From positions 24,336 through 56,335 of the forward strand of contig NZ_JAYKGW010000119.1 in the NCBI RefSeq assembly GCF_035285525.1: a DNA stretch of 32,000 bases, in the 5' to 3' direction. The position numbers and the translations under genes were made by a program. Positions 7,726 through 8,659 of this stretch are shown in pieces; positions within the stretch are counted from its first letter, which is position 1; the number at the start of each line of letters is the position of its first letter. The stretch is from Okeania sp. Its GTDB lineage: Bacteria; Cyanobacteriota; Cyanobacteriia; Cyanobacteriales; Microcoleaceae. A model generated the notes under the pieces. The model saw only the letters and a program-made list of their open reading frames with translations, was not told where the DNA came from and made no database searches.

Positions 7726-8659
7726 GTGCGACTCGTTCCTACTAAGAGCCTTTAGAAACTAGAGGGGTATGAGTAGGGTCCAACGAGGCCACGGAGGAAG
7801 AGCCTGTAGAGCTATTCGCTATATAAGGCCACCAAAGAAGAGCCTTGTAGTGATAACTGAGTTACGGATGTGGGTGAAAGTCCCACCCGCTGAGGGAAAG
7901 CGGACTCCCGACCTGGCCACACCGAGCTAGACCTTTTCCGCTAGCAGAGTGAAGCTGGCATCAGGCCCCAACCAGAGCTAAGAGTGATAGGCGCACTGGG
8001 GGTAATGGGGAGACGGCATGGGTACATTACGGAATGTCCTGAAAAAGCGTCTTATCTACCGGATAGGAGTCACTCAAACCTCCTGACCGCACACGGGAAA
8101 TTCCCGCGTCAAATATTGCCATTAGACGCATCCCTGGGGAACGTGTAGGCGAATTGGACAGCCCTAAACCGTCATAACAATCTGTAATTCGGAACGAGGA
8201 AAAACGGCAAGTAAGTCTGGTCATGTAGGTTTTGTGGCTAGTAGGAGGAAAGCTCGGAACTCTTGCTTGACGGGTAGGATGGGGGAACGAAATTACCCCC
8301 GGCAATCGAGAAACCTCAAAGGAAGGGTGATGAAGCTTAGACACCTGGTTTGACCAGAGTGAAGCACCCAACCTATACGTACAGGGTAAAACCTCTAGCC
8401 CGAAATTCACCAGGCGAAAGTCGAGTGCAAAACGACACAGAGGTAAGTAACTCCAAGGCGGTAGGCTAAAGGCACTCCCGATCTCGAGACGGTGGAAGAT
8501 TAGGATAAGCTAAACCTTAACCCGGTTCAGCCCTAATCAATGGATTTTGTCTCTAACTGAGATGTTACCACAGATTGCTAGGAGCCGTGATGCGGTGAAA
8601 GTCGCACGTCCGGTTCTGAAGTAGAGGTGCGGAGGGTAATACCTCCCATCGACTATAAC
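7726..8659 (+). mobile_element. ORF-less group II intron interrupting tsaD
   Basis: 5' GTGCGAC at 7726. Domain V at 8582-8616 (GAGCCGTGATGCGGTGAAAGTCGCACGTCCGGTTC) has the AGC triad, a GAAA tetraloop and an AC bulge. Domain VI helix has bulged A8652, 7 nt before ...AAC|AAA. EBS1 ATTGCC (8115-8120) complements IBS1 GGCAAT (7720-7725). EBS2-like TCTAC (8055-8059) pairs with GTAGA (7714-7718). No plus-strand ORF of at least 60 aa inside. Confidence 0.85.

Follow-up and report, generated by a model that had tools for sequence, protein, structure and literature searches.

The closest described counterparts of the element reported here are the group II introns of the cyanobacterium Trichodesmium erythraeum IMS101. 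In this organism, 17 group II introns are spliced from 10 host genes, as documented by split RNA-seq reads (Pfreundt et al. 2014; PMC4143802, Table 2). The hosts include dnaN, nrdJ, thyX and Tery_1635 (PMC4143802, Table 2; PMC4649490), the last of which is described as a 'putative metal dependent protease' and is listed with an intron without a maturase (PMC4143802). Ten of the 17 introns contain no open reading frame (ORF), and for these ORF-less introns both autonomous and maturase-aided splicing have been left open (PMC4649490). Help by a trans-encoded maturase was shown in Escherichia coli for ORF-less Trichodesmium introns, according to the account of Meng et al. (2005) given in PMC4649490. 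Here, we describe an ORF-less group II intron that interrupts tsaD, a gene for the synthesis of N6-threonylcarbamoyladenosine (t6A), in a 32,000-nt stretch of Okeania sp. DNA (positions 24,336 to 56,335 of contig NZ_JAYKGW010000119.1, assembly GCF_035285525.1). We refer to this whole stretch as the window; all positions are counted within it and all features lie on its + strand, unless stated otherwise. With a probability of roughly 80%, we read the element as an intact, IIB-like intron in the single tsaD of its Okeania genome, located between codons 191 and 192 and spliced as a lariat, probably with the help of a foreign maturase. A first-pass annotation of the window, made from the sequence without database searches, had held that bacterial group II introns usually avoid conserved housekeeping genes; given the 10 host genes in T. 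erythraeum, this generalization fails for the present clade (PMC4143802; PMC4649490).

The same host gene is interrupted in T. erythraeum itself. In the locus that we retrieved from this species (L017), tsaD is broken after ...AAMIGC, between codons 319 and 320 (L017 6957/6958), by an intron of 2037 nt (L017 6958-8994, corresponding to approximately 2,496,955-2,498,991 of NC_008312.1). This intron scores 54.3 bits with the Rfam model RF00029, and its excision restores ...MIGC/AAADHLS..., where the slash marks the junction, as in all junctions below. Product name, genome position and the protein ABG50911.1 together strongly indicate that the interrupted gene is Tery_1635. The intron holds a decayed reverse transcriptase (RT)/maturase/HNH gene, which is in pieces and contains stop codons. 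Reading through from the exon into the intron gives ...MIGCVRLVGH, which is ABG50911.1 ('O-sialoglycoprotein endopeptidase [T. erythraeum IMS101]'); because this protein occurs on 67 contigs, the interrupted allele is widespread in T. erythraeum populations. By its domain I, the L017 intron groups with those of loci L168, L160, L196 and L101, which have GUGCGACUCGUUGGCCACUA... and an MNKAKTLKRRL... protein in common. The minus strand of L196, a marine metagenome contig, carries two domain V matches approximately 2.5 kb apart. The first shortly precedes the 5′ end of an intron of the Trichodesmium type whose protein gene is broken, an arrangement that suggests tandem introns in one host gene.

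Compared with this precedent, the window intron occupies the same host gene in a sister clade, lies in the sense orientation and likewise lacks a working protein gene. The two introns also share the 5′ sequence GUGCG.CUCGUU and a similar domain V. They differ in position, the T. erythraeum intron being located about 128 codons further downstream (codon 319/320 versus 191/192), and in size, with 2037 nt including the decayed protein gene in T. erythraeum versus 934 nt without any remnant of one in the window. Their lineages differ as well, as similarity between them is confined to domain V (by BLAST) and the first 12 nt. Furthermore, the T. erythraeum intron is spliced in vivo, as seen in split RNA-seq reads (PMC4143802), whereas the window intron is known from its sequence. 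As both site and lineage differ, we rejected the possibility that the window intron is an inherited orthologue of the Tery_1635 intron. Each of the two genomes is empty at the intron site of the other, so that introns entered tsaD on two independent occasions in these sister genera. The T. erythraeum introns in dnaN, nrdJ and thyX resemble the window intron in being ORF-less, in residing in conserved housekeeping genes and in the trans-acting maturase that has been proposed for them, while host genes, organism and lineage are different. Trans-assisted splicing has been tested for T. erythraeum introns (Meng et al. 2005; Liu et al. 2003/2004, as cited in PMC4143802 and PMC4649490), whereas we infer it here.

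The insertion site can be traced through the relatives of the window. A scan in which each species was represented by a single genome yielded 80 tsaD loci. The gene is uninterrupted in Okeania, Dapis, metagenome-assembled genomes (MAGs) of Trichodesmium and more distant cyanobacteria, and the tsaD of a further close relative (L001; GCA_013332635.1) is uninterrupted too. At the DNA level, all 15 of the closest orthologues, including that of T. erythraeum, are empty at the intron site, where ...GG(C/G/T) AAT is followed directly by A(A/G)A T... The intron is therefore a gain in the Okeania lineage of the window. This is the comparison of orthologous loci that the first-pass annotation had proposed.

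The complete intron spans 7726-8659 (934 nt). It starts with GUGCG (7726-7730) and ends with AAC, of which the AC at 8658-8659 forms the terminus, in agreement with the boundary consensus of 5′ GUGYG and 3′ AY; ends of the same type are found in two homologous introns (L020 and L203) that are described below. A scan of the whole window with Rfam at gathering thresholds gave two matches, namely one tRNA and RF00029 (group II intron domains V and VI). The latter covers 8580-8659 with 50.3 bits (E 3e-7; model positions 1-77 of 77), above its gathering score of 40 bits, and its final base, 8659, is exactly the last base before exon 2. The first-pass annotation had drawn the boundaries at 7725/7726 and 8659/8660 and had suggested a covariance-model search as a check. 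The RF00029 match answers that check, and the boundaries agree with its end, with the in-frame junction and with the spacing seen in orthologues.

Within the intron, ORFs reach only 53, 54 and 127 aa, and a Pfam search with these three gave no match; no RT is found among the window ORFs of at least 100 aa outside the intron. A tblastn search with two intron-encoded proteins (IEPs) found no match in the intron (best match anywhere in the window, E 0.26), while in the T. erythraeum tsaD intron, which served as a positive control, the same queries picked up the decayed protein gene (E 1e-32). The 279-nt domain IV, in which a mobile intron would carry its RT/maturase ORF, is thus devoid of any such signal, and we therefore class the intron as ORF-less, in line with the first-pass annotation, which had listed no maturase or RT ORF. 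The element displays every sequence-level feature of a group II intron and lacks only the encoded protein.

In base composition, the intron stands out from its surroundings (51% G+C versus 36% in the remaining window); the earlier counts of 38/60 G+C at 7861-7920 and 11/60 at 7201-7260 are exact. This sharp contrast, in a window that apparently stems from a metagenome-derived Okeania genome, could also be expected if foreign, G+C-rich sequence had been mis-joined into the tsaD of a MAG during assembly. We consider such a chimera extremely improbable. The junction falls base-exactly between two codons and restores a perfect TsaD, and the exon-binding sites (EBS1 and EBS2) of the insert are complementary to the flanking exon. 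In addition, a separate assembly (Logan, run SRR19514071) agrees in every base with window positions 5595-7855 (2261 nt) and so spans the junction of exon 1 and intron; it may, however, have been built from the same reads.

The two exons together form an intact gene. Exon 1 covers 7153-7725 (codons 1-191) and exon 2 covers 8660-9151 (codons 192-354 and the stop codon); when joined, they encode, in frame, a TsaD of 354 aa. We took the ATG at 7153 as the start codon and regard the upstream in-frame TTG at 7123 as less likely; the N-termini of orthologues read MT(R/T)(V/I)LAIETS, and the match to the NCBIfam equivalog TIGR03723 (TsaD, t6A threonylcarbamoyltransferase subunit) begins at residue 4. 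The joined product matches this profile in a single stretch over positions 1-313 of 314, with 424.6 bits against a cut-off of 296.1 bits. Alignment with solved TsaD structures is gapless over the junction (best 6n9a, E 1e-87), as is alignment with nine uninterrupted cyanobacterial TsaDs, in which the junction ...LAVEGN/KLAFNLPEG has the same spacing as in the orthologues (e.g. ...AAEGNKLAFALPEG). All sequences of the latter alignment share the metal-binding residues H110, H111, H115 and D312, the joined product being a full-length TsaD with the conserved metal-binding histidines and aspartate. Neither exon contains a stop codon or frameshift. The ORFs at 7123-7755 and 8627-9151, which had been taken in the first-pass annotation for halves of one tsaD, are hereby joined. 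Exact look-ups of the spliced TsaD sequence and of the exon 2 ORF found no entry in the protein collection, in which the exon 1 read-through product is present from one Logan contig. 

As for its neighborhood, tsaD is adjoined by psaF, whose product is identical to MEB3341309.1 (Okeania sp.). The corresponding space between psaF and tsaD is uninterrupted in the window and is occupied in the relative L001 by an IS605 OrfB/TnpB-type gene (4908-6143 of that locus, minus strand). Approximately 8 kb downstream of tsaD lies tsaC/sua5 (17099-17695; Sua5/YciO/YrdC, PF01300, E 4e-37), the product of which we take to be the other universal t6A synthesis enzyme.

Homologous introns of similar size place the window intron in a family. 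When the intron was compared by BLAST with all fetched loci, most were linked to it via domain V only, and L020 aligned over its full length. A metagenome scan with a domain V pattern proved too generic, as it returned at least 120 stretches, nearly all of them linked via domains V and VI only by BLAST. L020 was encountered in the set of tsaD loci, and a plasmid collection contributed the copies of Crinalium and Anabaena. The L020 intron (584-1534, minus strand; 951 nt, ORF-less) resides in a gene for a geranylgeranyl-reductase-like FAD protein (...YTWNM/EDPVQVKLE...) of the cyanobacterial MAG MFD02581; it is located approximately 5 kb from the uninterrupted tsaD of its own genome. The second full-length homologue (L203 1421-2369; 949 nt, ORF-less) is found on plasmid pCRI9333.04 of Crinalium epipsammum PCC 9333, inside the RT gene of another group II intron (VTQDNQG/KKTAGVDG), and thus forms a twintron. 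In the record of this plasmid, the split RT halves are annotated as separate proteins. Identity between the window intron and these two copies is 60-62% and extends over all six domains. The two have the same landmarks as the window intron, no ORF and the same EBS1 and EBS2 positions, but they occupy other insertion sites and lack two marks of the window intron, an expansion of domain I and an additional U within domain V.

By domain I, the nearest protein-encoding relative is a copy on plasmid pANA02 of Anabaena sp. 90, which has a similar domain I and encodes a protein of 501 aa with RVT_N, RVT_1, GIIM and weak HNH domains. No recognizable GUGYG or matching exon was found for this copy, which was used for domain I and its protein only. 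Another Crinalium sequence (L204, plasmid pCRI9333.02) was excluded from the alignments, as it resembles the intron over the 3′ 40% only and lacks a credible 5′ end. The window intron belongs to a compact, ORF-less lineage of approximately 940 nt whose members have been retargeted to unrelated sites in other filamentous cyanobacteria. ORF-less derivatives of group II introns are also reported for Thermosynechococcus elongatus (Mohr et al. 2010, as cited in PMC8919778), and in archaea, genes of intron-encoded proteins serve as homing sites for ORF-less introns (Dai and Zimmerly 2003, as cited in PMC4649490). These follow the same concept of protein-less introns that persist and spread via the proteins of related introns, a conceptual likeness drawn from the literature, but they belong to other organisms and lineages. 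Literature searches for group II introns in tsaD or sialoglycoprotein endopeptidase genes, or in Okeania, found nothing for this locus.

The three full-length homologues (window, L020 and Crinalium L203) were used to derive a consensus fold with RNAalifold, which contains 235 pairs, with 94.7% of cells paired. Changes on both sides occur in 54 pairs, whereas column shuffles give 19.3 ± 3.7 such pairs and a shift of the partners by 1-3 columns gives 3-9; these values are to be read in the light of a structure drawn from the same three-sequence alignment, in which two of the three sequences are 91% identical. In this fold, a long-range helix closes domain I, and domains II to IV are arranged round a central wheel. 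Domain I (7732-8198) is closed by CUCGUU (7732-7737) and AACGAG (8193-8198), and its helices 2-22 include 27 pairs changed on both sides. Its conserved blocks are visible in four sequences, and it contains a GAAA-capped hairpin at 7870-7886. An expansion of approximately 66-90 nt at about 7739-7830 is without a counterpart in the L020 and Crinalium homologues; because the motifs AGGCCAC and GAAGAGCCU are repeated in it, we suggest that it arose by internal duplication.

Domain II extends approximately from 8205 to 8272, with limits set by comparison with L020 and the L168 family, and its inner helix (8228-8234/8255-8261) has 3 pairs changed on both sides. The GUAGGAU at 8274-8280 probably represents J2/3, the junction of domains II and III; it is invariant in the window, L020 and Crinalium introns, reads GUAAGAC in Anabaena and is kept as UAGGAU in the Trichodesmium-type family. 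Domain III (8281-8300) is a short hairpin (GGGGG...CCCCC; helix 26, with one compensated pair), the position of which agrees with that of the short domain III of the L168 family. Domain IV (8301-8579) consists of 279 nt without an ORF and stands on a basal helix (helix 27) formed by GGCAAUC (8301-8307) and GAUUGCU (8573-8579), again with one compensated pair. It starts approximately 576 nt into the intron, and the IEP ORF of L168 starts at about nt 590. The 5′ part of domain IV (AUGAAGCUUAGACAC, approximately 8330-8345) aligns with the region in which the protein gene of the Anabaena pANA02 copy starts. This suggests that the ORF has been deleted from domain IV and that a protein-binding region may have been retained as a vestige.

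Target recognition is laid down in domain I. A hairpin at 8106-8129 (stem GCGUC/GACGC) exposes in its loop EBS1, AUUGCC (8115-8120), the exact complement of the intron-binding site IBS1, GGCAAT, which comprises the final six bases of exon 1 (7720-7725). EBS2, UCUAC (8055-8059), lies directly 3′ of the conserved AAAAAGCGUCUUA, which is invariant in the aligned homologues, and is the exact complement of IBS2, GTAGA (7714-7718). Both elements had been named in the first-pass annotation as complements of the exon, and both covary in the two homologous introns. Where the window pairs AUUGCC with GGCAAU (EBS1/IBS1) and UCUAC with GUAGA (EBS2/IBS2), the L020 intron pairs CCAUAU with AUAUGG and CCGUG with CAUGG, and the Crinalium intron pairs CCCUGG with CCAGGG and UAUCU with AGAUA. 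Thus, perfect pairings of EBS1 with IBS1 (6 bp) and of EBS2 with IBS2 (5 bp) recur at the same alignment columns with different sequences, in three introns at three unrelated sites. The stem of the EBS1 hairpin is itself preserved by compensatory changes (GCAGC/GCUGU in L020), and the combined EBS1 and EBS2 arrangement of the window arises in 0.8% of shuffled introns. Covariation across the three introns therefore establishes both pairings.

One exon base deserves separate mention in this context. T7715 is specific to the window and turns GCA into GTA (Ala to Val), thereby completing the 5-bp pairing of IBS2 with EBS2; at this codon, 14 of the 15 orthologues have GC(A/G), one has GGA, and none has a T at the position. 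Either the exon has adapted to the intron, or the intron entered a variant allele.

At the 3′ end of the intron, domain V (8582-8616, 35 nt) carries the AGC triad at 8583-8585, a GAAA loop at 8597-8600 and an AC bulge at 8606-8607. Domain VI (8621-8656) contains the bulged A8652, a candidate branch point 7 nt before the last intron base, and in its helix, both partners differ between homologues in 4 pairs; CAUCGACU(A/C)UAAC is conserved. The two domains combine the canonical AGC, 2-nt bulge, GNRA loop and bulged A. Both had been recognized in the first-pass annotation, including the AGC, GAAA and AC of domain V and the bulged A8652, and the RF00029 alignment reproduces them, with the doubly changed pairs adding to the case for domain VI. 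An additional bulged base in domain V, U8588, went without mention at that stage. The same 35-nt form of domain V is found in L168, which has an intact IEP of 593 aa, and U8588 is therefore a trait of the family rather than a sign of damage.

With respect to subclass, the presence of EBS2 excludes IIC. EBS2 together with a domain V of 35 nt corresponds to the IIB/chloroplast-like type, for which EBS2 and a domain V of approximately 34 nt are characteristic, and the intron is likely to belong there. Beyond RF00029, the best Rfam matches are to models of plastid IIB domain V, namely RF04356, with 46.3 bits below its cut-off of 61, and RF04336. A permissive scan of 7600-8800 with the Rfam models for domains I to IV gave a best D1D4 match of 12.1 bits (E 6.4).

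From this anatomy, a conventional splicing pathway can be proposed. The tsaD gene would be transcribed as a precursor of approximately 2 kb, in which EBS1 (8115-8120) and EBS2 (8055-8059) of domain I would pair with the last 12 exon bases. The 2′-OH of the bulged A8652 in domain VI would then attack the 5′ splice site (7725/7726), after which the freed exon 1 would attack 8659/8660, releasing the intron as a lariat and ligating the exons (...GGC AAT/AAA TTA...). The ligated mRNA would encode the normal TsaD of 354 aa. With the protein gene lost from domain IV, the intron would most likely need a maturase from another group II intron in the genome to be spliced efficiently in vivo, and any movement of the intron would likewise depend on such a protein acting in trans. 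Okeania genomes offer many genes for RT/maturase/HNH proteins of the Trichodesmium type, with 10 of the listed entries from Okeania sp. SIO3I5 alone.

A maturase acting in trans is the most likely mode of splicing. To our knowledge, nearly all bacterial group II introns require a protein for splicing at physiological Mg2+, which argues against the alternative of autonomous splicing in vivo by the pure ribozyme. The compactness and G+C richness of the intron and its full set of conserved helices would suit such autonomy, and no cognate protein lineage labelled as Okeania appears among the matches listed. By analogy with Ll.LtrB, the stretch of domain IV that aligns with the start of the Anabaena protein gene may nonetheless be a protein-binding site. 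The literature leaves both modes open for the ORF-less introns of Trichodesmium (PMC4649490), yet trans maturase help has been shown for such introns (Meng 2005, as cited in PMC4649490). Overall, we consider autonomous splicing possible but rather unlikely. A further thought is that tsaD splicing might serve as a control point, which would couple TsaD output and t6A to the maturases of other introns, to Mg2+ or to stress, the two invasions of tsaD then reflecting selection for this coupling rather than chance. We regard this idea as a long shot.

Several points weigh against an intact intron that is spliced with foreign help. Splicing at 7725/8660 is predicted from the anatomy of the intron, as is the need for a trans-acting protein. 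U8588 departs from the canonical 34-nt domain V, although protein-encoding relatives share it, and the intron has no formal subclass, because the Rfam models for domains I to IV gave no significant match. None of the 120 listed relatives of the Anabaena-type 501-aa protein, whose lineage is the closest to the window intron, carries an Okeania label, and a cognate Okeania maturase is therefore hypothetical. The Okeania genome may also hold a second intact tsaD elsewhere, or no compatible maturase. Finally, the low ratios of nonsynonymous to synonymous substitutions (dN/dS) in exon 1 (0.06-0.12) and exon 2 (0.09-0.15), determined against 15 orthologues (Nei-Gojobori; dS 0.3-0.7), are weak evidence for selection after insertion, supportive rather than decisive, because much of the divergence may predate the intron.

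These points bear on the possibility that the intron is dead and tsaD a recently disrupted pseudogene, with t6A either supplied by another tsaD copy or dispensable. For Synechocystis, the gene (gcp) has been reported to be non-essential (PMC6504816, citing Zuther 1998), so that the term essential, which the first-pass annotation had applied to it, goes too far for cyanobacteria. Pseudogenes are noted to be numerous in T. erythraeum (PMC4649490), our search for tsaD covered the 32-kb window rather than the whole genome, and the NCBI annotation is evidently without a full-length protein at this locus, in keeping with the missing entry for the exact spliced sequence. Against a pseudogene, the two exons are undamaged and share one reading frame, with dN/dS values of 0.06-0.15 overall, the catalytic and recognition elements of the intron are all intact and supported by covariation, and the exon change T7715 improves the pairing of IBS2. 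Moreover, the top 120 TsaD matches listed include no second TsaD of Okeania sp. with more than 93% identity that could represent a paralogue, and tsaC/sua5 has been kept 8 kb away. We therefore judge a dead intron unlikely and retain the reading of an intact intron that is removed from a functional tsaD transcript.

Other features of the window lie outside the intron and its host gene. Intergenic arrays of 7-nt tandem repeats are located at 1312-1368, 4646-4714, 5593-5627, 9149-9176 and 9674-9714, and further 7-nt arrays are found at 9977-10011, 10541-10622, 24772-24815 and 24938-25069. Examples are TAGGGAA, which is repeated four times beginning at the tsaD stop codon, and AAGAAGG, which is repeated 19 times; the arrays are reminiscent of the short repeats that are typically found in tandem in filamentous cyanobacteria. 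Two non-coding tandem duplications are present at 15956-16472 (259 nt, 2.0 copies, 92% identity) and 19687-20132 (194 nt, 2.3 copies, 85% identity). The tRNA gene at 13720-13793 (Rfam, 71.3 bits) has an anticodon loop that we read by eye as UUUGGGA, so that it would encode tRNA-Pro(UGG).

ORF-less introns in conserved genes are already in the literature, as are their occurrence in this clade and even tsaD as a host gene; mechanism and phenomenon are both established, and the present locus raises no new question in this regard. Novelty lies in the organism, the position of the insertion, the lineage of the intron and the small group of retargeted copies to which it belongs. For genome surveys, the locus is a practical warning: automatic annotation splits or drops this tsaD, and t6A synthesis could consequently be scored as lacking where it is not. 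The copies in tsaD, in the geranylgeranyl-reductase-like gene and in the RT gene offer a clean natural example of how introns without a protein of their own can be retargeted by altered EBS1 and EBS2 sequences. Within the Trichodesmium/Okeania clade, the window intron represents a second, independent group II intron in tsaD, at another site and of another lineage, and it extends to Okeania an unusual, organelle-like tendency to retain ORF-less introns within conserved genes.

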